A DNA stretch of 26,533 bases. Source: Chthoniobacterales bacterium. Its GTDB lineage: Bacteria; Verrucomicrobiota; Verrucomicrobiia; Chthoniobacterales; UBA10450. Location of the stretch: the NCBI GenBank assembly GCA_049278515.1, contig JBAPMH010000453.1, positions 1 through 26,533 on the forward strand, in the 5' to 3' direction. Made by a program: the position numbers and the translations under genes. Positions 3,315-19,170 of the stretch are shown here, in pieces. Positions within the stretch are counted from its first letter, which is position 1; each line of letters opens with the position of its first letter. The notes beneath the pieces were generated by a model. That model made no database searches. It was not told the DNA's origin and worked only from the letters and a program-made list of their open reading frames with translations.

Positions 3315-4085
3315 ATGGAAGGTCTTGGTAAAAAATTAAAAGAAGCGCGTTTAGCGCGAAACCTCACTCTCGAAGAAGCAGGCCGGCTGACCAAAATCAG
3401 GCCGGGCCGGCTCGAAGAAATCGAGAACGAGGATTTCTCGCAATTCGCCAGCCTGGCGTACGCCAAGGGGTTTCTGCTCATCTACGGGAAATTTCTCGAA
3501 GTAGATGTAAGCCCCTATCTGGAGGCGTTCGAAACATCGGAGCACGTCACCGTGGACGGGTATGCTTACCTTCAGGAGACGCCGGAGCCCATGCCCAGCC
3601 GCCCGGTGGTGGTCCGGCGGCCAAGAAGTAGCGGTGAGCGCACGTCGCTTTGGCCATTTGTTATCGGTGTCTTGGTACTGGTCATCGGATTTACGGTCAT
3701 GAAATCGCTCCTCCAGGTGCAGCGGCTCAAGCCGAGACCCTCTCCGACCCCCGGCTTTTCGCCGGCCGCAACCGAGACCGCCTCGGACAAGATTATTGCG
3801 CCTCACGCCCTGCCGGTGGAAAGCACGACCCCGGCGGCGACTGACGTGAGTTCCGCGGCGCCTACACCGCCGCCGACCGTCGCCCCTACGAGCACGCCGC
3901 ACGTGCCCTCGGCCCCGGCTGCTGAGCCTGAAGTGCGCCGGGCGGAACCGGTGCATCCGGATGAGGTGGCGAAACAGCCTCCGGTGACGCCCCGGCCTAC
4001 GGCGTCCCCAAGAAAGTCACCGCGCCGGGTCACACCGACGCCGGCTCCCCGGCCTACCGTGTTGACCACGCCTCGGGCGCGCTAG
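3315..4085 (+). CDS. XRE-type HTH membrane protein, RodZ-like (HTH + one TM + Pro-rich tail)
   Basis: An internal ATG at 3315 gives MEGLGKKLKEARLARNLTLEEAGRLTKIRPGRLEEIENEDF (HTH_25/RodZ-like N-terminus), a TM segment LWPFVIGVLVLVIGFTVM, then a Pro/Thr/Ala-rich tail. It starts 22 nt after the ftsK stop. The ORF-track start at 3204 overlaps ftsK and is unlikely. Confidence 0.7.
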   Translation: MEGLGKKLKEARLARNLTLEEAGRLTKIRPGRLEEIENEDFSQFASLAYAKGFLLIYGKFLEVDVSPYLEAFETSEHVTVDGYAYLQETPEPMPSRPVVVRRPRSSGERTSLWPFVIGVLVLVIGFTVMKSLLQVQRLKPRPSPTPGFSPAATETASDKIIAPHALPVESTTPAATDVSSAAPTPPPTVAPTSTPHVPSAPAAEPEVRRAEPVHPDEVAKQPPVTPRPTASPRKSPRRVTPTPAPRPTVLTTPRAR

Positions 4086-4105
4086 GAGCCCCAACTCTTG
4101 TTGAA

Positions 4106-5476
4106 ATGATCAGCGAAACGGTATCGCCCCCGAAGGTCGGCATGATCAGTCTGGGGTGCGCAAAAAACCTTGTCGATGCGGAGATCATGCTGGGGAGCGT
4201 GTTGGAGCAGGGCATGGAAATCACTTCGAGCGCCGAGGAGGCGGATGTGATCGTGGTGAACACCTGCGCATTTATCGATTCGGCGAAGGAAGAGTCGATC
4301 GAAGCAATTCTCGAGGCGCATCAACAGCGCGGGCTCGGGAAAAAGCCCGGCCAAAAATTGATCGTGAGCGGATGCATGTCGCAGCGTTTTTCGCGTGAGC
4401 TGCGCGAATCTCTCCCCGAGGTGGATGCTTTCGTCGGCCTGGACCAGGTGAGCGAGATGGGAGCGATCGTCCAGCGCGTCCTGAAGGTCGAGAACGATCG
4501 GGGTCATTCCTTTGTCACCGACCGGCCGACTTACATTCCGAATTACGATACGCCACGGTTCCGGCTCACCCCAACGCACAGCGCCTACCTGAAGATCGCG
4601 GAAGGATGCAATCACCCCTGCAGCTTTTGCGTAATCCCGCAGATGCGTGGACGGCACCGCAGCCGCCAGCCCGGTTCGATTCTCGCGGAGATTCGGGCGC
4701 TGATCACCGAAGGGGTGAAAGAGATCAACCTGATCAGCCAGGACACGACTTATTACGGAATGGATTTGTGGGCGGCGAAAGCCGGGCCCCGCCAGCCGGT
4801 CGATTCCTCGAGGGGACCGACTCTTGCCGCGCTGCTTCGAGAGATCCAAACCATCGAAGGCGATTTTTGGGTGCGGCTGCTCTACACGCACCCGGCCCAT
4901 TGGAGCAGGGAATTGATCGAGACGATCGCTCAATGCGACAAGGTTGCGCGCTACATCGACATGCCGCTCCAGCATATTGAGGAAGGCATGCTCGGGCGGA
5001 TGCGCCGCGAAACGAGCCGGGCTCATATCGAGGAGGTCATTGGGGATCTGCGCGCGGGAATTCCGGGGGTCGCGTTGCGGACGACCTTCATTGTTGGTTT
5101 TCCTGGCGAAACCGAGGCGGCATTCGAGTCGCTCCTGGAATTCATCGATCGCACCCGTTTTGAGCGGCTGGGGGTTTTCAAATATTCCCAGGAGGAGGGT
5201 TCCCGCGCCGCCAAGATGCCGGAGCAAATCCCTGCGAAGATCAAGAACGATCGTTATCGTCGTGCCATGAGCGTGCAACAGCGGATTGCTCGCGAGATGG
5301 CCGCCGAAAAGGTCGGGCGCGAGATGCGGTTGCTGGTCGATCAGCCGCTCGTCGCCCGCACGGAAATGGACGCGCCGGACGTGGATGCGCGGGTGATTCT
5401 TTCGCAGCCGGAGATCGTCGGTCAGTTTGTCGAACGACGGATAACGGGCAGTCGCGGCTACGATTTGCTGGCTTAG
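4106..5476 (+). CDS. rimO: Ribosomal protein S12 methylthiotransferase RimO (MiaB-family radical SAM)
   Basis: N-terminal VGMISLGCAKNLVDAEIMLG is typical of RimO UPF0004 domains. It has the radical-SAM motif CNHPCSFC (CxxxCxxC) and a C-terminal TRAM-like segment. The start could instead be the ATG at 4142. Confidence 0.85.
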   Translation: MISETVSPPKVGMISLGCAKNLVDAEIMLGSVLEQGMEITSSAEEADVIVVNTCAFIDSAKEESIEAILEAHQQRGLGKKPGQKLIVSGCMSQRFSRELRESLPEVDAFVGLDQVSEMGAIVQRVLKVENDRGHSFVTDRPTYIPNYDTPRFRLTPTHSAYLKIAEGCNHPCSFCVIPQMRGRHRSRQPGSILAEIRALITEGVKEINLISQDTTYYGMDLWAAKAGPRQPVDSSRGPTLAALLREIQTIEGDFWVRLLYTHPAHWSRELIETIAQCDKVARYIDMPLQHIEEGMLGRMRRETSRAHIEEVIGDLRAGIPGVALRTTFIVGFPGETEAAFESLLEFIDRTRFERLGVFKYSQEEGSRAAKMPEQIPAKIKNDRYRRAMSVQQRIAREMAAEKVGREMRLLVDQPLVARTEMDAPDVDARVILSQPEIVGQFVERRITGSRGYDLLA

Positions 5477-5621: not shown

Positions 5622-5867
5622 ATGAGTGAACCACACCAGGATACTGTTCGCATTCCACCCGCCCCCGCGCCGGACCATTTTGTGCCGGGCCCGAAAAAGG
5701 ACACGGCGCGCATCGCAATCCTGCCAAGGGCCACCCCGGCGCCCGTTGTCGCCGCCGCCAGACCGGTCGCCGCCCTCGATTCCATTCCCAAACCGTACTA
5801 CTGGGCAATCTTTGGTTTGGCCGCCCTAATTTTTATCATTCAAATTTGGAATTTCTTTGTATCGTAG
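5622..5867 (+). CDS. Small hypothetical membrane protein (Pro-rich N-terminus, C-terminal TM)
   Basis: 81 aa, ending in YYWAIFGLAALIFIIQIWNFFVS. Its stop is 3 nt before the trxA start, which suggests co-translation with trxA. No recognisable family and no clear SD. Confidence 0.45.
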   Translation: MSEPHQDTVRIPPAPAPDHFVPGPKKDTARIAILPRATPAPVVAAARPVAALDSIPKPYYWAIFGLAALIFIIQIWNFFVS

Positions 5868-5870
5868 GGG

Positions 5871-6200
5871 ATGGACAATTCCGCCGCTATTACACTGGAC
5901 GATTCTAATTTTGACAAGGAAGTGAATCAAAGCGCGCAACCGGTGCTGGTTGATTTTTGGGCCGAATGGTGCGGTCCCTGTAAAATGATCGCGCCGCTGA
6001 TTGACGAGATTGCCAAGGAAAAAGCCGGCTCGGTGAAGGTCGCGAAAGTAAATGTCGACGACAACCAGAGCCTCTCCATGAAGTATAACGTCCGCGCGAT
6101 TCCCGCGCTGCTTTTCTTCAAAGATGGCCAGTTGCGCGATCAGATCGTCGGGATGACGAGCAAGAAGGATTTGCTCGGCAGGCTCGAGGCGCTGGCGTGA
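5871..6200 (+). CDS. trxA: Thioredoxin
   Basis: 109 aa with the active site WAEWCGPCK and typical thioredoxin length and layout (VLVDFWAEWCGPCKMIAP...IPALLFFKDG). Confidence 0.95.
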   Translation: MDNSAAITLDDSNFDKEVNQSAQPVLVDFWAEWCGPCKMIAPLIDEIAKEKAGSVKVAKVNVDDNQSLSMKYNVRAIPALLFFKDGQLRDQIVGMTSKKDLLGRLEALA

Positions 6201-6277: not shown

Positions 6278-6284
6278 AATGAAT

Positions 6285-6358
6285 TGCGCCCGGCGCGGCT
6301 CGAACGCGCAACCTACAGCTTCGGAGGCTGTCACTCTATCCAGTTGAGCTACGGGCGC
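6285..6358 (-). tRNA. tRNA-Arg (anticodon CCG)
   Basis: The reverse complement GCGCCCGTAGCTCAACTGGATAGAGTGACAGCCTCCGAAGCTGTAGGTTGCGCGTTCGAGCCGCGCCGGGCGCA folds as a 74-nt cloverleaf:
- acceptor GCGCCCG/CGGGCGC;
- D stem GCTC/GAGT;
- anticodon stem ACAGC/GCTGT with loop CT-CCG-AA;
- T stem GCGCG/CGCGC with loop TTCGAGC.
CCA is not encoded. Confidence 0.9.
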
Positions 6359-6402
6359 AGCTTTCGCGGATTATAGCGGGGCAACGGGGCGATCACAACC
6401 GT

Positions 6403-7022: not shown

Positions 7023-7733
7023 ATGTACCGACGTTGTGGATTCCGGCATGAGCGAAAACTCCGCGCGCTTGGTATCACCACGATCGCCGGCATCGATGAA
7101 GCCGGCCGCGGCGCTCTCGCCGGTCCGGTCGTGGCGGCGGTTGTTATCCTCCCGGAAAAGTTCCGCCACCGGAAACTGAACGATTCGAAGCAGCTGTTGC
7201 CTGAGAAACGCCAGGAGATCTACCAGGACATCGTTGGGAACGATTCGATCCGCTGGGCGGTCGGAATCGTGGACTCAATCGAAATCGACACGATCAATAT
7301 CCTCCGGGCGACCCACAAGGCGATGCGCCTCGCGCTTTCCGGGCTCGCCCTTCAACCCGAGCACGTCCTCATCGATGGCCTGCCGGTGTTCCCTTTCCCG
7401 CTACCCCAAACTGCCATTATTGACGGCGATTGCTTCAGCCTCAGCATCGCCGCAGCGAGCGTGATCGCGAAGGTGACGCGCGATACGATTATGCGCGACT
7501 TTTGCGCTCGATATCCCGAGTATTGCTTCAGCCAGCACAAAGGCTACGGCACGGAACTACACCTGATTAAACTGCATGAACACGGGCCTTGTCCGATTCA
7601 TCGACGATCTTTCGAACCGGTGGCGCAGCCGGTTTTCGAGTTCGCCTCCCCGGCATCTGCGACTTGGCACGCGGGGGGAGAAACTGGCCGGCAAATTTCT
7701 CCGCCGGAACGGTTACAAAATTCTGTCTCGTAA
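7023..7733 (+). CDS. rnhB: Ribonuclease HII
   Basis: IAGIDEAGRGALAGPVVAAVVIL, NDSKQL and a C-terminal HRRSFEPV are RNase HII hallmarks. The ORF continues ~36 aa past the usual end and overlaps the next gene by 158 nt, so the 3' end is uncertain. Confidence 0.85.
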   Translation: MYRRCGFRHERKLRALGITTIAGIDEAGRGALAGPVVAAVVILPEKFRHRKLNDSKQLLPEKRQEIYQDIVGNDSIRWAVGIVDSIEIDTINILRATHKAMRLALSGLALQPEHVLIDGLPVFPFPLPQTAIIDGDCFSLSIAAASVIAKVTRDTIMRDFCARYPEYCFSQHKGYGTELHLIKLHEHGPCPIHRRSFEPVAQPVFEFASPASATWHAGGETGRQISPPERLQNSVS

Positions 7734-8028
7734 TTTTCGAGGTCGCACCGGTGGGGAGATCGACCTGGTCTGCCGCGATGGCGACACCCTGGTTTTCGTG
7801 GAGGTCAAAACGCGAACGCGGGAAGATTTTGGCCGGCCTCTCGATGCCGTGGATCGGGACAAGCGAAAACGAATTTCTCGCGGAGGCCTGGCCTGGCTGC
7901 GCCTGCTCGGCAATCCCGACATCCTCTTTCGGTTCGATGTCGTGGAAGTAATCATCGCGGAAGACGCCGAGCCGCGGCTGCAACTTCTGCGGAACGCTTT
8001 CTCCCTCCCCGAGCCTTACATTTACTAA
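7576..8028 (+). CDS. YraN-family (UPF0102) endonuclease-like protein
   Basis: LGTRGEKLAGKFLRRNGYKILSRNFRGRTGGEIDLVCRDGDTLVFVEVKTRT matches the YraN/UPF0102 core. The rnhB-yraN order is a commonly conserved pairing. The only canonical in-frame start is the ATG at 7576, which lies inside rnhB. Confidence 0.8.
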   Translation: MNTGLVRFIDDLSNRWRSRFSSSPPRHLRLGTRGEKLAGKFLRRNGYKILSRNFRGRTGGEIDLVCRDGDTLVFVEVKTRTREDFGRPLDAVDRDKRKRISRGGLAWLRLLGNPDILFRFDVVEVIIAEDAEPRLQLLRNAFSLPEPYIY

Positions 8029-8067
8029 ACGAAATGACGTGACCGGGCGTCGTGGCGACCGGGCCCG

Positions 8068-8099
8068 CTACTCGACGGTAACGCTTTTTGCGAGGTTGC
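8068..8099 (-). repeat. glmS 3'-end remnant, copy 1 (last 10 codons, NLAKSVTVE-stop)
   Basis: CTACTCGACGGTAACGCTTTTTGCGAGGTTGC versus the intact end CTACTCGACAGTGACGCTTTTGGCGAGGTTCC at 13523... The encoded peptide is identical with 3 synonymous differences. A few nt beyond the stop (GGGCCCG|CTA versus GCGGCCG|CTA) are also similar. Confidence 0.7.
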
Positions 8100-8262: not shown

Positions 8263-10011
8263 ATGAAAACCAGAGTCTTATCCCGGCTCGCTCGCGTCGC
8301 ATTTGTTCTCGCCTCGACCGCGCCTTTGCCTTTGTCAGCAGCACCCACTGCGACACCAAGTCCGGCTCCAACACCGATCTTCATTAAGCAGGGCGGAAAG
8401 TGGACACCTGACACCCGCAAGGACTTCTACAGCCGGGACCAAGGTTCGCAGATCATGCCGCTAAGATGGATGCAGGCGCTCAAACAGCCGGATGGTCAGC
8501 CCTTCCTGGCCGGCAGTCTTAGCCGATTTGGGTATCTACCGAACGAGGCGAGCGATCCCCCTGGGTTGCCGGTTGGTTTCACCGTCGCCAGCGGAAGCGG
8601 CGTCCGCCAAATCGGGCTGACCTGCTCCGCTTGCCATACACGCCAGATTGAGGTCGCCGGCAATTCCTATCGGATCGATGGCGGTCCGGCAATCGCCGAT
8701 GCCCAGAGCCTTTTCGCCGGCATCGACACCGCGGTGAACGCCGTCTTGAGCAGTGACACGGCATTCACGGATTTCGCTGTTGCGGTTCTCGGCCCGAACC
8801 CACCGCCGGATGAAAAGGCAAAGCTGCGCCAAGAAGTGGCCGCATGGCATTTGCGTTATCACACCCTGATGAAAGATGCATTGCCATCACCGTCTTGGGG
8901 CGTGGGACGGGTCGATGCCGTGGGGATGATTTTCAACCGGCTAACCGGCCTGGATATCGGCCCGCCGCCCACCTATCTTATCCCGGAGAATATCAAACCT
9001 GCGACCGCGCCGGCGCGCTACCCGTTTCTCTGGAATGCGCCGGTGCAGGACAAGACCCAGTGGCCGGGCTTCGCGGACAACGGCAGCAATATTCTGGGGC
9101 TCTCGCGTAATCTCGGCGAAGTCTATGGGGTGTTCGGCGCCTTTTTTCCCACAAAGTCCTGGTGGCGAGTGCTGGGAATCGATTACCTGGCCAATAATTC
9201 CGCTAACTTCGAGGGACTGAATGCCTTGGAGGAGCTGGTTCGCAAGATCGGGCCGCCGCAGTGGGCCTGGGAGGTAAATCAGCCGCTGGCCACCCAAGGC
9301 AAGGAAATTTTTGGGCGTACCACAGTGCAAGGCGGGTGCGTCAGTTGCCATGGGATAAAGCCTGGTGAAACGCGATTCCCCGACTGGAAAACATGGGCGA
9401 CACCGGTTTTGGACGTCGGGACCGACTCGAGGGAATACAGCATTCTTGGCTGGACCGTCAAAACCGGCGTCCTCGAAGGCGCGAAGATTCCCTTTCTGAA
9501 GGAGCGGCTGAAACCGGTCGATACCGCTTTTAATGTTCTGGGGACATCGGTTATTGGGTCCATTCTTCAGCATTATGTTCCGGTTCTGATGGACGAAAAA
9601 GCACAGCCGGAATCCAAGACCACACCACCGTCGCCGTTCACCCCGCAGACGGAGGACCTCAAGGGCGCGTTCAATCAACCAGTGCCGGGCGCTACTCCGT
9701 CCTTTGCCTACGAATCCAGAGTGCTCCAGGGAATTTGGGCCGCTGCACCGTATCTGCACAATGGATCGGTCCCGACTCTGGCCGAATTGCTGAAGCTGGC
9801 CGCCGAAAGGGTCGGTTCATTCAAGGTCGGCCCAGCCTACGACATAGTTAATGTCGGCCTGGCCGCCGAGCAGACCAAGTTCGATTATGTCATGCAGACG
9901 ACGGACTGTAGCGACCGAGATTCCGGAAACAGCCGTTGCGGCCATGAATACGGGACCAAGCTTTCGCCAGACGAGAAGAAGGCATTGCTCGAATACCTTA
10001 AGACGCTTTGA
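8263..10011 (+). CDS. Secreted di-heme cytochrome c peroxidase-like protein (RoxA/CCP-superfamily-like)
   Basis: 582 aa with an N-terminal signal-like peptide (VAFVLASTAPLPLSAAP) and two heme-binding motifs: CSACH (in GLTCSACHTRQ) and CVSCH (in GGCVSCHGIKPG). The PYLHNGSVPTLAELL motif resembles the PY(M/F)HDGS..TL motif of bacterial di-heme peroxidases. Confidence 0.75.
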   Translation: MKTRVLSRLARVAFVLASTAPLPLSAAPTATPSPAPTPIFIKQGGKWTPDTRKDFYSRDQGSQIMPLRWMQALKQPDGQPFLAGSLSRFGYLPNEASDPPGLPVGFTVASGSGVRQIGLTCSACHTRQIEVAGNSYRIDGGPAIADAQSLFAGIDTAVNAVLSSDTAFTDFAVAVLGPNPPPDEKAKLRQEVAAWHLRYHTLMKDALPSPSWGVGRVDAVGMIFNRLTGLDIGPPPTYLIPENIKPATAPARYPFLWNAPVQDKTQWPGFADNGSNILGLSRNLGEVYGVFGAFFPTKSWWRVLGIDYLANNSANFEGLNALEELVRKIGPPQWAWEVNQPLATQGKEIFGRTTVQGGCVSCHGIKPGETRFPDWKTWATPVLDVGTDSREYSILGWTVKTGVLEGAKIPFLKERLKPVDTAFNVLGTSVIGSILQHYVPVLMDEKAQPESKTTPPSPFTPQTEDLKGAFNQPVPGATPSFAYESRVLQGIWAAAPYLHNGSVPTLAELLKLAAERVGSFKVGPAYDIVNVGLAAEQTKFDYVMQTTDCSDRDSGNSRCGHEYGTKLSPDEKKALLEYLKTL

Positions 10012-10086: not shown

Positions 10087-10653
<567 letters not shown>

Positions 10654-11107: not shown

Positions 11108-11443
11108 ATGGCGTCATTCAGGATTTTCGGGCCTTACGTTTTAGACCTCGGCACTCCAGGGCTTGCACCTGGTCGCCATCAGGACACTTTTTGGCTGGGG
11201 TGGGTTCCCCAACCTCAATTTGGCAAATTCACAGCTACCGTCACGAGCCACCCCGGGCCAGAGGTCCCAGGCTCAGAGGAAAAACTGGCACACAGGTTGT
11301 ACACTTCGACCGTCGTAGAATGGGTCCCAGTGGTTAGTCCGCCCCAAGTACGACTAGATCTCGTCATTCATGCACGGTTGTTCAACACGGGAACAATCCC
11401 GATCAGGACTGTTAATCTTTGTATCACCTTCATTGAGCTTTAA
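11108..11443 (+). CDS. Hypothetical protein (111 aa), first gene of a low-GC two-gene operon
   Basis: A strong SD AGGAGGAGG (11093..11101) lies 6 nt before the ATG. The region is visibly lower in GC than the backbone. I recognise no motif; the sequence looks beta-rich and Pro-rich. Confidence 0.6.
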   Translation: MASFRIFGPYVLDLGTPGLAPGRHQDTFWLGWVPQPQFGKFTATVTSHPGPEVPGSEEKLAHRLYTSTVVEWVPVVSPPQVRLDLVIHARLFNTGTIPIRTVNLCITFIEL

Positions 11444-11461: not shown

Positions 11462-11704
11462 ATGCGCTTAACAGTAGTACACGACATTCAAGGCAATATA
11501 GCATCCATAGCTGCATCTCCAAAAGACTCACCGGTCATGTACGTCAAATTGGTGGCCGGGCAGCGCGTTGCTGAAATCGACGCACCGGAGCTGAAGCAAG
11601 ATTACGTCAGTGCGCATCTGAGTGAGTTAATCAAAGATCATCGGGTGGCGATCGAGCCGACTGGGGGCAAGCTTGTCAAGATAGGATCCGGGACAGCGAA
11701 ATAG
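11462..11704 (+). CDS. Hypothetical protein (80 aa), second gene of the operon
   Basis: SD AGGAGG (11451..11456) lies 5 nt before the ATG, and the start is 18 nt after the upstream stop. No recognisable motif. Confidence 0.6.
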   Translation: MRLTVVHDIQGNIASIAASPKDSPVMYVKLVAGQRVAEIDAPELKQDYVSAHLSELIKDHRVAIEPTGGKLVKIGSGTAK

Positions 11705-11889
11705 CCGTTCGCGTCGGAGACGCTCGCGCTGCACGATACTGAAATCTTGCTCGCTGAGCAGGAGGACGAGCATCGCGCACGATCTACGCACGCCACTCAA
11801 GACGGTTTCACTCCTTGTCGATCAACTGAAAGGCGAGTTTGAGGACAAAGGAGGCGCGGACTTAGCCGAAGTTTTCGAGATTGCCATAG

Positions 11890-12150
11890 GCGGTCATTCG
11901 CGCCGCTCGCAAGGCGCTGCGAAAGAGCTTTCCCACCGCCACGGAACTCGCTTGCGACAACTACAATTTCTTTGTGATTGGGTTCGGCCCAACAGAACGC
12001 CCTTCGGACTGTATCGTTTCCATCGCCGCCGTAGCAAATGGGGTCGCTTGGGGTTGCCCTGATTTGACGGACAGTGGGCAAGGGGTCAATCGTGCTTTCG
12101 CGGTACTACACGCGTTTTACGTCAGCATTGCGCCTGATGTTTCGCGATAG
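11890..12150 (+). pseudogene. DUF1801-like gene remnant (no start codon; probably frameshifted)
   Basis: The frame is open from the stop at 11887..11889 to TAG at 12148..12150, with no ATG. It reads AVIRAARKALRKSFPTATELACDNYNFFVIGFGPTERPSDCIVSIAAVANGV... This resembles, from memory, DUF1801/YdhG-like proteins (xxYDNYNxxxIGFxxxExxSDxIxSIA). The upstream part (~11810..11889) reads on in a different frame. The family assignment is tentative. Confidence 0.35.
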
Positions 12151-12166
12151 CGTAATTTGCAAATGT

Positions 12167-12200
12167 GAGATCCCTCGCCGTCGCGCAGCTCGGGATGACA
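12167..12200. repeat. Solo right-arm copy of the GTCATCCCGAGCG palindromic repeat family
   Basis: GAGATCCCTCGCCGTCGCGCAGCTCGGGATGACA resembles the right arms at 762..789 and 6460..6490. No matching left arm is nearby. It lies 24 nt from the stop of glmS remnant copy 3. Confidence 0.5.
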
Positions 12201-12223
12201 CGCAGTTTGGATGCCGCGGTAGC

Positions 12224-12485
12224 TCACTCGACGGTGACGCTTTTGGCAAGATTGCGCGGTTTATCGACGTCCCGGCCCAATTCGACGGCCATATGGTAGG
12301 CCAGAAGCTGGAGCGGGATTACGGTCAGGATCGGGCTCACGTAATCCGGAACGGGGGGGACTGAGATGATGTCGTCGGCGATTTTGGCCAGATGTTCTGA
12401 GCCTTTACCCGAGGTCACGGCAATCACAGGGCCCGGACTTGCTCGATGCTATGCAGGTTTTTAGAGAAGATGGCGTCATCCGATT
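12224..12485 (-). pseudogene. glmS 3'-end remnant, copy 3 (~260 nt, frame broken)
   Basis: The listed 67-aa ORF (GTG start) reads [66 protein letters not shown]. Nucleotide similarity to glmS continues upstream to about 12485, after a ~10-nt deletion near 12431 that shifts the frame. The stop is TGA here and TAG in the intact gene. Confidence 0.9.
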
Positions 12486-12503
12486 CCACGAGGGCCGGTT
12501 GGC

Positions 12504-13490
12504 TCAAGGACCGTTCTTGACCGCCTTGTTTGGTTCGCCTTTTCGTCGCGCTTTCATAATAGGCTCCGGTTTCGCCCATTCGCAGAACTCTGCAGCTGAG
12601 CTTTTCATCACGATAGCTGTAACGCCAGCAGCGAGCAGCGGAATTCCTATTTGGTAGTTACTAAATGCTTGTGAAATAGCCGTGGCGAAATAGGTCAGGC
12701 TGTATATTTCGGGAACCTTAGTCGCCCACATCTGGTAGATCGGACTCTTGGTGTCGCAGACAGTACGCCAACCAATTCTTTTCAGCAGGGCACCGACACG
12801 TCTGCCGAGTCCAAATGGGGATGTCGCTTGGTTCGGCGCAGGTAGGAATAGCCGGTCGCCGGATGAAAGCTGGAGTAATCCGTTGTTGCGAACGTCGTCC
12901 AAAAGATACACTGACTTCGCTGGCACTGCGCTCGCCAAATACTCATAGAGTTCCTCTTCGCTTTTGTTCTTCAATAGGAGAATCGCCGCGTTGTGAATCT
13001 CTTCGGGAATTAGAGGGCCCTCATTAGCCCCGATTAATTCCGTCAAAATAGCTTCCTCCTCAAAACGCTCGAAAATTCGTCTCTGCAGCAAGCGGCGCGT
13101 TTTGCTAGAGGAGATTTTGTTTAGATTCTTCAAAACCGATCGAAAATGGGCCTTCGCATCTGAGGTCTTTCTCTGACGGAGCAGTGCCACGGACAGGAGA
13201 AAGGTTGCTTCAATGCGGAGACGACCTCCGACGGGTGACTTCTCGCGAATGCTTACAAAGCCAGACTCGGCTACGGATACGTGATTGCTATCCAGCAGGC
13301 TTTCAAAATACCAGAGACGAGCCTCTAACATTCGGGGATGTTTCACACCGTAATCTGCTAGCAGTGCGTGAATCTCCTTTAGGGTCGCTTCGGCCTGAAC
13401 AATGTCGTGTCGAGTGCAAGCGTCTTTCAGCGTTCGCTCGAGCGGACGAAGTGATGCTAAATGACTTCTGCTTATGGGCTTTACTGCCAT
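12504..13490 (-). CDS. Orphan hypothetical protein (328 aa), immediately downstream of and co-oriented with glmS
   Basis: A long ORF in a lower-GC block. The ATG is 32 nt after the glmS stop, with no obvious terminator, promoter or SD between them. The N-terminal two thirds look alpha-helical. There is a hydrophobic stretch (IGIPLLAAGVTAIVM) near a basic C-terminus. I recognise no catalytic or family motif. Confidence 0.7.
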   Translation of the reverse strand: MAVKPISRSHLASLRPLERTLKDACTRHDIVQAEATLKEIHALLADYGVKHPRMLEARLWYFESLLDSNHVSVAESGFVSIREKSPVGGRLRIEATFLLSVALLRQRKTSDAKAHFRSVLKNLNKISSSKTRRLLQRRIFERFEEEAILTELIGANEGPLIPEEIHNAAILLLKNKSEEELYEYLASAVPAKSVYLLDDVRNNGLLQLSSGDRLFLPAPNQATSPFGLGRRVGALLKRIGWRTVCDTKSPIYQMWATKVPEIYSLTYFATAISQAFSNYQIGIPLLAAGVTAIVMKSSAAEFCEWAKPEPIMKARRKGEPNKAVKNGP

Positions 13491-13522
13491 TACGCCAAGA
13501 TCAAGGGTATGCGTCGCGGCCG

Positions 13523-15424
13523 CTACTCGACAGTGACGCTTTTGGCGAGGTTCCGCGGTTTGTCGACGTCCCGGCCCAATTCGACGGCCATGTGGTAGGC
13601 CAGAAGCTGGAGCGGGACTACGGTCAGGATCGGGCTGACGTAATCAGGAACGGCGGGGACTGAAATGATGTCGTCGGCGATTTTGGCCAGATGTTCCGAG
13701 CCTTTGCCCGAGGTCACGGCAATGACGGGGCCTTTCCGGGCCCGGACTTGCTCGATGTTGTTCAGATTCTTGGAAAAGACGGCGTCGTCCGGGGCGATAA
13801 ATACCGAAGGCAAGTCCGGCCGGACAAGGGCAATAATGCCGTGCTTGAGCTCGGCACTCGGATGGCCTTCGGCAAAGAGATAGGTGATCTCTTTCAATTT
13901 GAGGGCGGCTTCCACGGCGATCGGGAAGTTGAATTGCCGGCCGAAAAAGAGCATGCCGCTCACCGAGGCGTATTTTTTGGCGATGGCTTTGACTTGATCG
14001 CTCAGCTTGAGGACTTCCTCGATCTGCTCGGGCAACGCTTCCAAGGCGTCGATGATCCTGGTCCCTTCGGAAGTGGAGAGGTGACGCATGCGGCCGAGGA
14101 GCAATCCAACCGCGGCAAGAATGGTCACCTGAGAGGTGAAGGATTTGGTGGCGGCCACGCCGATTTCCGGCCCGGCATGCATGTAAACGCCGCCGTCACT
14201 TTCGCGTCCGACGGTGCTGGCGACGTTGTTGCAAATGCCGAGCGTGCGGTAGCCTTTGCGCTGGCTTTCGCGTAACGCGCCCAGGGTGTCCGCCGTCTCG
14301 CCGCTTTGGCTGATCGCGAAGACCAGCGTATCGCGGGTCATGGGAGTGTTGCGGTGGCGAAATTCGCTGGCGTGTTCTACTTCGGTCGGAATCTGCGCGA
14401 GCGCCTCGATCAGGTATTCCCCAATCATCGCCGCATGCAGGGCGGTCCCGCAGCCGGTCAAAACTACCCGGCCCACGTCGCGTAACTGGGCCGGCGTCAT
14501 GTTCAGGCCCCCGAGCTTGGCGGTGCATTCTTCGTGGCTAAGCCGGCCTCGCATCGCATCGCGGACGGACCCGGGCTGCTCAAAAATCTCCTTGAGCATG
14601 TAATGCGGGTAATCGCCCTTGTTGACGTCTGCGTCCGTGAATTCGACTTTGCTGAGCTGGTAATTGCCCCCCTCGCCGGCGACTGAGCTGATCTCGAATT
14701 TGTCGCGCTCAACCGCCACCACGTCGAAATCGTTCAAATACACCGCGTCCCGGGTGTAAGCGACAATGGCGCTGACGTCGCTCGCGAGGAAATTCTCCTC
14801 TTTGCCAACCCCGAGCACGAGCGGGCTGCCGCGGCGCGCGCCGACAATGAAATCGGGAATATCGCGATGGACGAGCGCAATTCCATAGGTGCCGATGACC
14901 TGGCGCAAGGCGGCGCGGACGGCATCAACGAGGCGTCCCTTCTTATTTGCTAAAACCGCGGCCGACCTGCCGTTCGAGCCCGGCGTAGAATCGGCTGTGA
15001 CCGACGCGTCGTAAAGTTTGCCGATCAGGTGGGCAAGGACTTCGGTATCGGTGTCCGAAGCAAAATTGTGGTCGCCGTCCCGAAGAAGCTGATCTTTTAA
15101 CGCCTGATAATTCTCGATAACGCCGTTGTGGACGAGCGCCAGTTTTCCGCTGGCATCGAAATGAGGATGGGCATTCTGATCGGTGGGCTTGCCATGGGTG
15201 GCCCAGCGGGTGTGGCTGATGCCGTAAGTCCCGGTGGGGGGATTGTCCGCCATGAGTTTCCCGAGGGCAGCGATCCGCCCGGCGCATTTGCGCGTCTCCA
15301 GGCGATCGCCATCCACGATCGCTACTCCCGCGGAATCGTAGCCGCGGTACTCAAGGCGGCGCAGCCCATCGAGCAGAATGGGCGCTGCTTCCGACCGTCC
15401 GACGTAGCCGACGATGCCACACAT
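13523..15424 (-). CDS. glmS: Glutamine--fructose-6-phosphate aminotransferase (isomerizing)
   Basis: From the internal ATG at 15424 it reads MCGIVGYVG (Ntn-Cys amidotransferase start), then two SIS domains and the canonical C-terminus [13 protein letters not shown]. The ORF-track start at 15517 adds 31 non-homologous residues. Confidence 0.95.
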   Translation of the reverse strand: MCGIVGYVGRSEAAPILLDGLRRLEYRGYDSAGVAIVDGDRLETRKCAGRIAALGKLMADNPPTGTYGISHTRWATHGKPTDQNAHPHFDASGKLALVHNGVIENYQALKDQLLRDGDHNFASDTDTEVLAHLIGKLYDASVTADSTPGSNGRSAAVLANKKGRLVDAVRAALRQVIGTYGIALVHRDIPDFIVGARRGSPLVLGVGKEENFLASDVSAIVAYTRDAVYLNDFDVVAVERDKFEISSVAGEGGNYQLSKVEFTDADVNKGDYPHYMLKEIFEQPGSVRDAMRGRLSHEECTAKLGGLNMTPAQLRDVGRVVLTGCGTALHAAMIGEYLIEALAQIPTEVEHASEFRHRNTPMTRDTLVFAISQSGETADTLGALRESQRKGYRTLGICNNVASTVGRESDGGVYMHAGPEIGVAATKSFTSQVTILAAVGLLLGRMRHLSTSEGTRIIDALEALPEQIEEVLKLSDQVKAIAKKYASVSGMLFFGRQFNFPIAVEAALKLKEITYLFAEGHPSAELKHGIIALVRPDLPSVFIAPDDAVFSKNLNNIEQVRARKGPVIAVTSGKGSEHLAKIADDIISVPAVPDYVSPILTVVPLQLLAYHMAVELGRDVDKPRNLAKSVTVE

Positions 15425-15460
15425 GACAGAGCGTGACACTAAGCCGTGACGGGCGCAACC

Positions 15461-15530
15461 GATGTAGAGGCGCTCGCCGCGGCGAGCGCCTGTTGTTCGG
15501 TAAGGCGCCTGGCACACGCGCCTCTACATC
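15461..15530. promoter_or_regulatory. Nested palindromes in the glmS/glgC divergent intergenic region (possible glmS leader structure)
   Basis: A 13-bp perfect inverted repeat, GATGTAGAGGCGC (15461..15473) and GCGCCTCTACATC (15518..15530), encloses a perfect 22-nt palindrome GGCGCTCGCCGCGGCGAGCGCC (15469..15490). The palindrome overlaps the left arm by 5 nt, so the two pairings are mutually exclusive. Confidence 0.3.
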
Positions 15531-15581
15531 AATCGGCGAAAATGTTTGATGGTTGCAGCGGCAATCTGCGTTAATTGATTT

Positions 15582-16934
15582 GTGGAAACGAAAAGCCGCT
15601 CAATTCGCCAGGCGCTTTCCCTGGAATCTGCGTCCGCCCTCTCGACCCCCGCGCTGCCTCCCGGTACGACCCGGCGCACCCTGGCGATCGTGATGGGCGG
15701 CGGCGCCGGAACCCGCCTGTTTCCGCTAACGAAGGACCGATCGAAACCCGCCGTCCCGTTGGGCGGCAAATACCGAATCGTCGATATCTCGATCAGCAAT
15801 TGTCTCAACTCCGGTTTGCGCTCGATCTACGTGCTCACGCAGTTCAACAGCATGTCGCTGCACCGGCACATTCAGGCCAGTTACAAGTTCGATAATTTCT
15901 CCCGCAGCTTCGTGGACATCCTGGCGGCCCAGCAAACGCCGGAAGGCTCCCAGTGGTATCAGGGCACGGCCGACGCCGTCCGCCAAAACATGCGCTACTT
16001 CCTGGAGCACCCTTTCGATTACTACATCATCCTTAGCGGGGATCAGCTTTACCGGATGGATTTTCGCGCGCTCCTGCATCAGCACATCCGCTCCGGGGCT
16101 GACATCACGCTCGCCATAAAACCGGTCCCGCGCGAACAGGCCTCGGAATTCGGGATCATGCTCAGCGACGCGGACCGGCGCGTGACTCGTTTCGTCGAGA
16201 AACCGACGGACCCGAATGTGCTAAGCGAGCTTAAAATGGGAGCGGAGCTTCTCGCATCCGCCGGATCGGCCCCAGACGCGGAGCTCTATCAGGCGTCCAT
16301 GGGGATCTACGTTTTCAATCGAAACGTCCTCGTGGAATGCCTCGACAACGACCTGGTCGATTTCGGGAAGCACATCATCCCCCAGGCGATTCAGGAACGG
16401 CAGGTGAGCGGTTACGTTTTCAACGGCTACTGGGAAGATATTGGAACGATCCGGGCGTTTTACGAAGCCAACCTCGATCTGACGGATCTGCTGCCGCAAT
16501 ACAGTTTTTTCGAGGCCTCAGCCCCGATCTACACCCACCCGCGTTTTTTGCCCGGCAGCAAAATCAACGGAGCGACTCTGCGCCAGGCGATCATCGCGGA
16601 TGGTTGCATAATCTCAGACGCGCACCTCGAGCGGTCGGTTATCGGAGTTCGCAGCATCATTCAGAGCGGGGCCACGATTCGAAACAGCATCGTAATGGGC
16701 GCTGACTATTATGAGACTGATGCCGGCGCGCAACGCGGATCGCCGCCGATCGGGATCGGGCGCAATTGTGTGATCGATCGCGCGATTATCGACAAGAATG
16801 CCCGGATCGCGGATGGAGTCGTGATTACACCGGAGGGAAAACCGGCGGACCTGGATGCCGGCAATTACTTTATCCGGGACGGGATCGTAGTGGTGCCCAA
16901 GAACGCGGTGATTCCGCCCGGATTCTGGATTTAG
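15582..16934 (+). CDS. glgC: Glucose-1-phosphate adenylyltransferase
   Basis: LAIVMGGGAGTRLFPLTKDRSKPAVPLGGKYRIVDISISNCLNSG is the GlgC N-terminal signature. A left-handed beta-helix style C-terminus is present. The GTG start at 15582 is uncertain. Confidence 0.9.
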   Translation: METKSRSIRQALSLESASALSTPALPPGTTRRTLAIVMGGGAGTRLFPLTKDRSKPAVPLGGKYRIVDISISNCLNSGLRSIYVLTQFNSMSLHRHIQASYKFDNFSRSFVDILAAQQTPEGSQWYQGTADAVRQNMRYFLEHPFDYYIILSGDQLYRMDFRALLHQHIRSGADITLAIKPVPREQASEFGIMLSDADRRVTRFVEKPTDPNVLSELKMGAELLASAGSAPDAELYQASMGIYVFNRNVLVECLDNDLVDFGKHIIPQAIQERQVSGYVFNGYWEDIGTIRAFYEANLDLTDLLPQYSFFEASAPIYTHPRFLPGSKINGATLRQAIIADGCIISDAHLERSVIGVRSIIQSGATIRNSIVMGADYYETDAGAQRGSPPIGIGRNCVIDRAIIDKNARIADGVVITPEGKPADLDAGNYFIRDGIVVVPKNAVIPPGFWI

Positions 16935-18723: not shown

Positions 18724-19170
18724 TTAGGCCGCGCCAGCGAGGACGTGTTGCGGCCGCGCCAGGGCTTCGCGACGAGCCCGCTGCTGGCAGGTGGCGAGGA
18801 CGCGGGACAGGACGCAATAGAGCTGTTCGATCGGAAGATTTTTGCTCACGTAGCCGTTGGCTCCGGCGCGTAACGCGGCGTGCATCCGCTCTTCGTCGTA
18901 TCCGACGCCGGTAAAAACGATGATCGGGAGGGTTTCGCTCATCTCCCGGATGAATGAGATTAGCGAGATGCCATCCACCTTGGGCATGTTCAGATCGACG
19001 ACCACGACGTCGCACTTGTGATGCTCGAGCCAGGCGGCGGTCTGGAAGCCTTCAGTGAGGAACTCGCAGGTATGACTTTTTTGCTTGAGATAAGTAACGA
19101 GGAACTTGGTGATCGCCGGGTCATCATCGATGAGGAGGAACTCGACAGCATCGCGGTTAAGAATTTTCAT
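18724..19170 (-). CDS. Stand-alone response-regulator receiver (CheY-like)
   Basis: FLLIDDDPAITKFL, VVVVDLNMPKVDGISL, IIVFTG and GANGYVSKNL correspond to the DD, phospho-Asp, T and K positions of REC domains. There is no output domain. Confidence 0.85.
   Translation of the reverse strand: MKILNRDAVEFLLIDDDPAITKFLVTYLKQKSHTCEFLTEGFQTAAWLEHHKCDVVVVDLNMPKVDGISLISFIREMSETLPIIVFTGVGYDEERMHAALRAGANGYVSKNLPIEQLYCVLSRVLATCQQRARREALARPQHVLAGAA

Follow-up and report, generated by a model that had tools for sequence, protein, structure and literature searches.

A single foreign gene among stacked glmS tails: a candidate case of serial, integrase-free displacement behind an essential gene in a soil Chthoniobacterales

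How does a single foreign gene come to lie directly behind an essential gene and yet leave it intact? The question is raised by a 26.5-kb stretch of soil Chthoniobacterales (Verrucomicrobiota) DNA (contig JBAPMH010000453.1, positions 1 to 26,533, hereafter the window), in which glmS, the gene for glutamine-fructose-6-phosphate aminotransferase, is followed by an open reading frame (ORF) of 328 amino acids (aa), here called ORF328. Three blocks of DNA are stacked behind glmS, and ORF328, the subject of this study, is the cargo ORF of the glmS-proximal and newest one. The answer toward which we lean, and only modestly, is that ORF328 was acquired as the end of glmS was displaced in successive rounds, with no integrase at work, and that it is stand-alone cargo, independent of glmS in what it does but expressed by read-through from it.

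The arrangement itself is plain. A first-pass annotation, made from the letters alone, had described one 328-aa ORF, co-oriented with glmS, whose ATG lies 32 nucleotides (nt) past the glmS stop and whose own stop falls within ~20 nt of a glmS remnant; the ORF list and the raw sequence confirm all of this, the 32 nt being exact and the second distance measuring 21 nt. The glmS gene ends in a TAG at 13523-13525 and begins with the conserved MCGIVGY start at 15424, the mechanical ORF extending to 15517. The array begins at glmS, and moving away from it one meets in turn ORF328, a partial copy of the glmS 3' end (remnant 3), a middle block with remnant 2, a RoxA-like gene, remnant 1, and the pair yraN/rnhB (Table 1).

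To judge from its relatives, ORF328 is certainly a coding gene under purifying selection. A word-indexed protein search returned 12 of them, 11 full-length (315–328 aa, 41–86% identity) and one a 193-aa fragment, and a profile search of 1.84 billion representatives gave 233 clusters (at 50% identity), 119 of them at E <= 1e-30; the full-length members are nearly all ~310–325 aa, and none in the 233 clusters carries extra domains or fusions. Compared with the homologue at locus L005, the nearest with DNA, the proportions of non-synonymous and synonymous differences (pN and pS) are 0.13–0.14 and 0.67–0.75, the latter saturated. The coding signal, a point that the first-pass annotation had left for checking, is thus strong, with full-length homologues, a family of 233 clusters and pN far below pS. 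Since the homologue N-termini align from residue 1, the ATG at 13490 is the start. The impression of a guanine-plus-cytosine (GC) content visibly below that of the backbone also holds: ORF328 has GC 0.509 and GC at third codon positions (GC3) 0.529, against 0.56–0.61 and 0.67–0.75 for backbone genes. Judged by its sequence, then, ORF328 is a horizontally acquired gene. The L005 homologue (L005:1522-2486, 76–80% aa identity to ORF328) is itself split into two overlapping ORFs, either as a frameshifted pseudogene or through a sequencing error.

How the gene arrived is best read from the glmS tails. Aligned with the end of the live gene, remnant 3 shows 93% identity across 208 nt when no gaps are allowed and 87% across 278 nt when they are, and its protein is 94.5% identical to the live tail over 73 residues. 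Were one copy the product of duplication in place followed by neutral drift, about 60% of the differences between them should be non-synonymous. The 84 alignable codons instead show 19 synonymous and 5 non-synonymous differences (5/24, P = 1e-4; synonymous divergence dS 0.39, dN/dS 0.07), so that duplication of the tail in place and subsequent decay is rejected. The synonymous bias implies that the live tail and remnant 3 diverged in separate genomes; the glmS tail would then have been imported rather than copied in place, and the live tail is probably a surrogate that arrived together with ORF328. A similar pattern is seen in the last 36 codons of remnant 2, which differ from the live tail by 9 synonymous changes and 1 non-synonymous change, the 5' half of this remnant being decayed. 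The tail copies in the window are 84–93% identical to one another but at most 84% identical in nucleotides to any genome in the collection, which suggests that the donors were close relatives.

The related genomes show that the position just behind glmS is a variable one. The glmS protein of the window is 79–93% identical to those of 80 Chthoniobacterales/Verrucomicrobiota species representatives, with o263-glgC-glmS kept as the gene order on the upstream side. Downstream the order varies: many relatives have pilB-pilB-pilC, the closest ones phoB-phoR-pst, and a further clade serA-permease, and in none of the 80 do yraN, rnhB, the RoxA-like gene or ORF328 lie within 10 kb of glmS. For the seven nearest phoB-type relatives, the distance from the glmS stop to the start of the native phoB promoter region is +4, +59, +496, +647, +1765, +2337 and +2939, and 6 of ~31 pilB-type relatives carry inserts of 0.36–1.8 kb behind glmS. 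No mobility genes are apparent in these relatives' inserts from ORF sizes and N-terminal sequences, no Pfam scan of the insert ORFs having been made. Besides L046, the insert-bearing genomes are L043, L044, L051 and L053, of the phoB type, and L047, L058, L070, L097, L098 and L111; their inserts measure 0.4–2.9 kb and carry unrelated genes, a 962-aa secreted protein and small secreted proteins being examples.

One relative repeats the architecture of the window. In L046 (Chthoniobacterales metagenome-assembled genome (MAG) SMAG_U11933; 11897-13600) an intact glmS is followed by a 1.6-kb insert of GC 0.52 against 0.62, and then by a 94-nt glmS remnant of 30 codons and a stop. The remnant is joined to native phoB promoter DNA, to which the empty sites of L048 and L052 can be aligned. 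Two co-oriented ORFs, one of 265 aa and a membrane-like one of 276 aa, lie in the insert, which ends exactly at the remnant; neither ORF looks like a recombinase, though this is by appearance and no Pfam scan was made. The L046 arrangement thus implies that incoming DNA brings a new tail and cargo, and that the former tail remains attached to its original downstream sequence. With the foreign composition of ORF328, the variable inserts behind glmS in relatives and the displaced tail on the distal side, the earlier suggestion of accessory single-gene cargo at an integration hotspot is well borne out.

Under serial displacement, DNA from a related lineage carrying a 'glmS 3' end + ORF328' segment would recombine into the chromosome, with conserved glmS sequence as a one-sided homologous anchor and with the far end joining illegitimately within the glmS tail of the recipient. 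As lineages differ in gene order downstream of glmS, incoming DNA would often be homologous on the glmS side only. The surrogate tail from the incoming DNA would keep the essential gene intact, and the former tail, pushed downstream, would become remnant 3, with remnants 2 and 1 left by earlier rounds. A joint inside the recipient's glmS tail would be harmless because the donor tail completes the gene, and the promoter downstream would be spared as well, which would explain the survival of such joints. This process, homology-facilitated illegitimate recombination or 'sequential displacement', would involve no integrase and no att core. The breakpoints lie at differing positions in glmS, about -267, -205 and -35/-55 in the window and -95 in L046; past the stop codon the four glmS tail copies share no core beyond ~15–20 nt. 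Recombinase and transposase Pfam families are absent from the 21 window ORFs scanned, the small ORFs at 5622-6200 and 18724-19170 being left unscanned. Remnant 2 is fused to a truncated GerE, and this implies that a deletion or an illegitimate joint made that block boundary.

Such a mechanism has good precedents; the ORF328 protein family is uncharacterised. Sequential displacement by homology-facilitated illegitimate recombination has been proposed for the immunity arrays of type VI secretion systems (T6SS) and for Rhs orphans (PMC5361080). In the T6SS effector-immunity arrays of Vibrio cholerae and in the orphan 3' modules of Rhs and contact-dependent inhibition (CDI) systems, as here, a conserved anchor lies upstream, new genes are added, and old 3' ends are displaced into a tandem series with the newest nearest the live gene, with no integrase or fixed site. 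In the window, however, a housekeeping gene, glmS, takes the place of the polymorphic toxin gene as anchor, the cargo has no relation to that gene, being neither an immunity gene nor an alternative C-terminus, and nothing obvious selects for the displaced pieces. The architecture is thus a variant of known displacement or 3'-end-replacement phenomena, applied to a housekeeping gene. In the literature on islands at the glmS tail, only work on Tn7 turned up.

Several observations weigh against this reading. The window is essentially one whole metagenomic contig, recorded with a length of 26,535 nt. Each of its tails is ~76–84% identical to those of relatives, and with no genome closer than ~84% in nucleotides the native tail cannot be told from an imported one. 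A search of the 80 relatives for other glmS remnants, in which most blastn matches proved to be the start of the neighbouring gene, found only that of L046 and none in the other inserts, so that an event this rare would have occurred three times in the window. A displaced tail joined to native downstream DNA is seen in L046 only, no relative sharing the downstream genes of the window. Finally, ORF328 fills its block almost exactly, with 32 + 21 nt to spare, and the L046 cargo ORF likewise ends at the remnant; random donor breakpoints do not predict so exact a fit, which keeps alive the notion of a defined 'cargo + glmS tail' unit.

That notion leads to one of the rival accounts, a self-propagating 'glmS-homing' cassette in which ORF328 and a glmS 3' fragment loop out as a ~1.3-kb circle and re-enter a similar glmS by RecA-dependent single crossover, borrowing the glmS promoter, as an integrase-free analogue of integron cassettes. 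The tight packing of ORF328 between two tails and the similar packing in L046 fit it, as do the co-oriented and promoterless cargo of both loci, repeats of 95–270 nt that are long enough for RecA, and the travels of ORF328 relatives in other cassette systems. We nevertheless hold it improbable, since only two such loci were found among 81 Chthoniobacterales species representatives, no ORF328 homologue elsewhere adjoins glmS, the cargo of the older blocks A and B is partly in opposite orientation, and nucleotide similarity to L005 is confined to the coding region. Another mode of insertion could also be imagined. Direct repeats of a target gene's 3' end, such as the live tail and remnant 3 (87–93% identical), are the classic attL/attR signature, and the blocks might be decayed integrase-mediated islands of the e14/phage-21-at-icd type, or cis-mobilizable elements (CIMEs) from accretion of integrative and conjugative elements (ICEs), whose attP carried a glmS surrogate and whose integrases and most cargo were later deleted. 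Tandem stacking resembles accretion, and the fusion of remnant 2 to the truncated GerE shows that deletions do occur in the array. In the known case e14 leaves a 163-bp pseudo-icd' in icd (PMC6379469). With e14 and phage 21, too, the target gene is kept intact by a tail that comes with the insert, the one it displaces is left as a direct repeat at the far end, and the differences between copies are mostly synonymous. Those elements, however, use a tyrosine integrase and a fixed core and span many kb; the window offers no integrase that could be found, variable breakpoints and a single 1-kb gene. Islands of this kind are rendered rather unlikely by the want of a recombinase family in the window ORFs scanned and of any recombinase-like ORF in the inserts of L043, L044, L046, L051 and L053 (no Pfam scan), by four differing glmS breakpoints with no common core past the stop, and by the newest block, which at ~1 kb and one intact ORF would need very precise deletions on both sides.

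Three further explanations fare worse. The region behind glmS is a hotspot in relatives and the proximal junction lies no more than 32 nt past the glmS stop, presumably close to where Tn7 inserts, so that the blocks could be remnants of Tn7-like insertions at a site equivalent to attTn7. The window does share with attTn7 the safe landing neighbourhood just past the stop, but the Pfam scan of window ORFs yielded no tnsABCD- or tniQ-like genes, no repeated ends bound ORF328, and one would expect a 5-bp target duplication rather than copies of 35–267 nt of glmS coding sequence; we consider this origin highly improbable (for Tn7 insertion near the end of glmS, see PMC11014353). The fact that the window is essentially an entire metagenomic contig, with repeats made of conserved-gene sequence common to co-occurring strains, invites the suspicion of an assembly chimera in which strain variants were wrongly joined through a shared glmS tail. 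Such an artefact is very unlikely: the junctions between cargo and remnant lie at positions within glmS that are not shared and therefore could not result from shared k-mers, the copies are 7–16% diverged with distinct stops and an indel, and the same architecture recurs in an independent genome, L046, complete with the native DNA downstream. There is, lastly, the thought that ORF328 might be a functional partner of glmS in a native operon, for instance a regulator of amino-sugar or cell-wall precursor synthesis, as co-orientation, a gap of 32 nt and the lack of a terminator between the two would allow. This can hardly be credited, as glmS is absent near ~100 homologue loci, ORF328 is absent at 80 related glmS loci, its composition is foreign, and a displaced glmS tail separates it from the rest of the chromosome.

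How, then, would a gene displaced into this position be expressed? A consensus scan of 11800-15800 finds no sigma-70-like promoter, neither the 32-nt nor the 21-nt spacer holds a terminator-like site, and the spacers fold no better than their shuffles (z +0.10 and +1.73, respectively; remnant z -0.47). The first-pass annotation had seen no hairpin or promoter-like motif between glmS and ORF328, and these scans agree. It had also found no Shine-Dalgarno (SD) sequence; this too is so, the best duplex reaching only -1.5 kcal/mol, but the point loses its weight as an argument, since glmS, rnhB, fba and the RoxA-like gene likewise lack an SD match and the missing SD of ORF328 is therefore uninformative on expression. 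ORF328 would share a transcript with glmS and need no SD for its translation, as is common among the genes here. Because no signals separate the two genes, read-through from glmS is the simplest route, and probably the one by which ORF328 is expressed.

If ORF328 arrived as cargo, the question becomes what kind of passenger it is, and the distribution of its family is informative. Among 185,579 species genomes (one genome per species) there are 30 loci, scattered over Verrucomicrobiota, beta- and gamma-Proteobacteria, Acidobacteriota, Desulfobulbia and one Asgard MAG; the best Verrucomicrobiota relatives reach 54–55% identity over long matches, and a 96-residue fragment, L040, reaches 71%. A further 62 metagenome loci were recovered, an earlier metagenome scan with the single ORF328 protein as query having returned none. 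No relative was found by tblastn in plasmid and phage records. Apart from the window itself, glmS does not lie near a homologue at any of the 12 + 30 + 62 other loci. The survey of homologues for a glmS neighbour, proposed in the first-pass annotation, thus comes out negative in ~100 loci, and the absence argues that there is no functional link to glmS; that link is effectively refuted by the comparative data. Nor do the homologues behave as syntenic core genes, which would have told against an accessory nature: the family is both patchy and rare, and across ~98 loci neighbour clustering and a screen for small upstream ORFs find no conserved neighbour gene on either side and no conserved small partner gene in the style of type II toxin-antitoxin pairs. 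In the lineage L006–L010, and only there, a 65-aa ORF lies flush against the homologue's start (L006:293-490; same in L007, L009 and L010), and it may resemble the C-terminal half of ParD-type antitoxins; the gene upstream of the L009 homologue has no sequence match in the PDB.

Some of these relatives do travel in recognisable cassettes. At L151 a 115-nt element is present in two direct copies (233-347 and 1310-1424), one on each side of the homologue. Its ends, ATCTAAC/CCCTAAC ... GTTAGAT/GTTATAT, fit RYYYAAC...GTTRRRY, and the copies fold as bulged hairpins with dG of -50.8 kcal/mol (z -10.7) and -46.5 kcal/mol (z -9.0); the start of the ORF lies 12 nt past the element. On these features the L151 homologue is an integron gene cassette with attC-like sites. 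L027 is probably an integron array as well: 174-nt direct repeats (55-228 and 3823-3996), ending in GTTAGAT 7 nt before the ATG, enclose the homologue, a TIR protein and two more ORFs, and the second copy is followed by a small CxxC...CxxC protein (4015-4578). Repeats at L023, considered as attC sites, were rejected as palindromes resembling repetitive extragenic palindromic (REP) sequences.

A different arrangement is seen at L019, L025, L138 and L145, where the homologue sits between convergent inverted copies of a 100–350-nt element (Table 1). This element, ~210 nt long with the core CCCCTGACCAGCCTGCGCTACTCGG, has many copies in genomes of Gallionellaceae, Sideroxydans and Nitrosomonadales and occurs in at least 120 stretches (L185–L304), of which 62 have a convergent +/- pair 0.1–2 kb apart around variable cargo. 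The representative loci checked show no Rfam or tRNA match, and the element looks like an inverted-repeat-bracketed, transposase-less cassette family, akin to mobile insertion cassettes (MICs) or to a miniature inverted-repeat transposable element (MITE) with a passenger. The ORF328 family is thus a recurrent single-gene passenger, which argues for stand-alone action. Between ORF328 and the homologue loci (L005 being the nearest with DNA) nucleotide similarity ends at the coding region.

The description of ORF328 as a promoterless cassette, offered in the first-pass annotation, accordingly holds in one sense and fails in another: it is literally true of L151, with its attC-like flanks, but the window has neither attC nor an integrase. 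Like integron cassettes, the ORF328 block is a compact, promoterless single-ORF unit behind an external promoter, the newest lying nearest the promoter, and a homologue, that of L151, is truly attC-flanked. Unlike them, the window lacks attC, attI and IntI, no attC-like inverted repeat and no Phage_integrase match (in the 21 ORFs scanned against Pfam) being found, its repeat is a piece of a coding gene, and blocks A and B contain genes of opposite orientation, so that the compact, promoterless and co-oriented form applies to ORF328 and not to all of those blocks.

The protein itself gives limited guidance. The AlphaFold model of full-length ORF328 is all-alpha (pLDDT 87, pTM 0.84), in line with the helical look noted at first pass, and the C-terminal domain modelled alone scores nearly as well (pLDDT 84, pTM 0.78). 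Residues 1–125 form three helix pairs, and the top Foldseek matches of the full-length model are all TPR proteins, below significance (best E 0.0097); the TPR of YbgF superposes on this N-terminus with a root-mean-square deviation (rmsd) of 3.7–3.8 A over 130 columns, at a Foldseek E of ~0.09–0.1, again below significance. Pfam TPR_19 is weakly matched by 32 of the 68 family members aligned (best E 9e-6), ORF328 itself having no Pfam TPR match and only a weak NCBIfam one (TIGR02795, E 0.04). The N-terminal ~125 residues, with their three helix pairs and sub-significance matches (E >= 0.01), may be akin to TPR proteins such as Rap/NprR-type regulators, YbgF/CpoB and kinesin light chain, but the C-terminal 190 residues, with their two invariant cysteines, have no counterpart there: the domain alone finds no similar fold in the PDB, where its top Foldseek entry has E 0.89 and TM < 0.25, and the full-length model none for this part in the PDB or BFVD. 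The models therefore suggest an N-terminal TPR-like domain joined to an all-alpha C-terminal domain of no known fold.

Cys245 and Cys303 are the only invariant residues across the 68 members, which go down to ~20% identity; E63, R90, E94, R132, R142, E146 and P308 are among the near-invariant positions. The first-pass annotation had also pointed to a hydrophobic segment and a basic tail. The tail is real, with a conserved RRK, and the segment corresponds to the conserved helix IGIPLLAAGVTAIVM (residues 281–295), whose 19-residue Kyte-Doolittle maximum of 1.58 is borderline for a membrane helix, a value of at least 1.6 being reached at the same place in 49 of the 68 members. In the model it is a 13-residue helix with pLDDT ~90, and it is somewhat more likely to be a buried helix than a transmembrane one. 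No family had been recognised at first pass, and the profile, sequence and fold searches give none either: there is no known family for ORF328 by sequence in Pfam, PADLOC, NCBIfam or the PDB, nor by profile in the PDB, the PADLOC-DB v2 hidden Markov models (HMMs) yield 0 families at E <= 1, the 68 members have no match in PHROGs, and the source names of 10 homologues are solely 'hypothetical protein'.

What might such a protein do? We would tentatively propose, as a possible but doubtful role suggested by sequence context, that ORF328 acts in conflict, whether in defence against phages and mobile elements or in a related stress or competition function; the TPR domain would be the part that binds or senses a trigger or partner, and the Cys-bearing domain the effector. 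The guess is made because the family is patchy, stand-alone, cassette-borne and sometimes found beside TIR, NERD, HEPN and ATPase genes of defence type. Integron cassettes are reported to be rich in phage-defence genes (bioRxiv 10.1101/2024.07.02.601719; PMC12614218). Among homologue neighbours of island type are four integrases, one resolvase, and AAA_15, AAA_13 and AAA_21 ATPases matching the AriA, AbiLi and PDC-S06 models. The L027 homologue adjoins the TIR protein, that of L022 a HEPN+nucleotidyltransferase protein, and at L041 the start of a NERD nuclease overlaps the homologue's stop; a DUF6414 gene also occurs among the neighbours, and the L001 homologue has DUF2971 and DUF5677 neighbours. 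On the first-pass question of whether homologues sit in defence islands, some lie beside genes of this type, and the majority of neighbouring genes are ordinary housekeeping ones. These housekeeping neighbours speak against a conflict function, as do the absence of relatives from plasmid and phage records and the uniformly negative searches for a known function in PADLOC, Pfam, NCBIfam, PHROGs and, by sequence and fold, the PDB.

The boldest form of the argument would join the two halves, making the ORF328 family a new stand-alone conflict protein, with a TPR sensor and an unseen, Cys-dependent all-alpha effector fold, and making the stacked glmS tails an integrase-free cassette platform. Taken together this is unlikely. 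Were it true, single-gene action would explain the repeated pick-up of the family by three unrelated capture systems, namely attC cassettes, Gallionellaceae inverted-repeat cassettes and glmS-tail blocks, and an essential gene's 3' end would double as recombination site and promoter donor, with 'cargo + glmS tail' units looping out and re-inserting by homologous recombination. Serial displacement is of interest without that claim: the locus is a clean, datable example of a single gene added behind an essential one that stays intact, at a place where mobile-element machinery is not obvious, and the mostly synonymous divergence between live and displaced tails makes the import step visible. If the process is general, one could predict where foreign genes land in uncultured phyla, namely at conserved essential genes beside breaks in synteny. 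ORF328, well conserved and a recurrent cassette passenger, has one domain that is predicted with confidence yet has no match among solved structures, which makes it a sensible candidate for functional screens.

Table 1. Features of the glmS–ORF328 locus and of homologue loci with inverted repeats (window positions unless a locus is named)
Feature	Position	Strand	Basis or remarks
glmS, intact, 633 aa; presumed transcription source for ORF328	13523..15424	-	Pfam GATase_6/7 + 2x SIS; no intervening signals
Live glmS tail, last 267 nt + stop	13523..13791	-	Direct-repeat families D1/D3; duplicated in remnant 3
Spacer of 32 nt, glmS stop to ORF328 start	13491..13522	-	Holds glmS-proximal insert junction
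ORF328, cargo gene, 328 aa	12504..13490	-	ATG start 13490-13488, TGA stop 12504-12506
ORF328 residues 1–125, TPR-like	13116-13490	-	AlphaFold model, Foldseek, weak TPR_19 matches in family
ORF328 residues 126–316, all-alpha domain, no known fold	12543-13115	-	AlphaFold model, Foldseek
Cys245 codon (TVCDT context)	12756..12758	-	Invariant, 68-member alignment
Conserved hydrophobic helix, residues 281–295	12606..12650	-	Translation, hydropathy, model
Cys303 codon (EFC motif)	12582..12584	-	Invariant, 68-member alignment
Spacer of 21 nt, ORF328 stop to remnant 3	12483..12503	-	Distal insert junction; glmS homology resumes at 12482
glmS remnant 3, putative displaced former 3' end, 259 nt	12224..12482	-	TGA stop instead of TAG, 10-nt deletion
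Two adjacent small ORFs, 111 and 80 aa, middle block (B)	11108-11443, 11462-11704	+	Opposite to glmS
Chimeric ORF, GerE + remnant 2	10087-10437	-	First ~52 residues of GerE/LuxR-type helix-turn-helix (HTH) (Pfam GerE positions 2-38 of 57)
glmS remnant 2, older	10087..10290	-	Last 64 codons, fused in frame to truncated GerE/LuxR HTH
RoxA-like di-haem cytochrome c/peroxidase-type protein with signal peptide, oldest block	8263-10011	+	GC3 0.67, backbone-like
glmS remnant 1, oldest	8065..8099	-	Last ~11 codons + stop survive; abuts yraN/rnhB
rnhB (RNase HII) and yraN (UPF0102), mechanical ORFs	7023-7733 and 7576-8028	+	Overlap ~158 nt
Inverted copies, L019	9564-9913/11001-11346		
Inverted copies, L025	9688-9788/11114-11215		
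Inverted copies, L138	126-223/1320-1418		
Inverted copies, L145	862-1067/2198-2406		

The remaining features of the array concern its older parts, whose genes, in blocks A and B, are partly opposite to glmS in orientation. The two small ORFs of block B have strong SD sequences (-12.2 and -11.5 kcal/mol) and low GC3 (0.54 and 0.56), and no match to either was found in Pfam or PDB sequence searches; they may be a foreign two-gene module. At the far end, a tRNA-Arg (CCG) lies at 6284-6359 on the minus strand, ~1.7 kb past remnant 1, between a 194-aa ORF and small ORFs, and no repeat of it was seen. The overlap of the mechanical rnhB and yraN frames implies that the start of yraN is probably further downstream. 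The end of yraN, convergent with the glmS array, falls 37 nt short of remnant 1.

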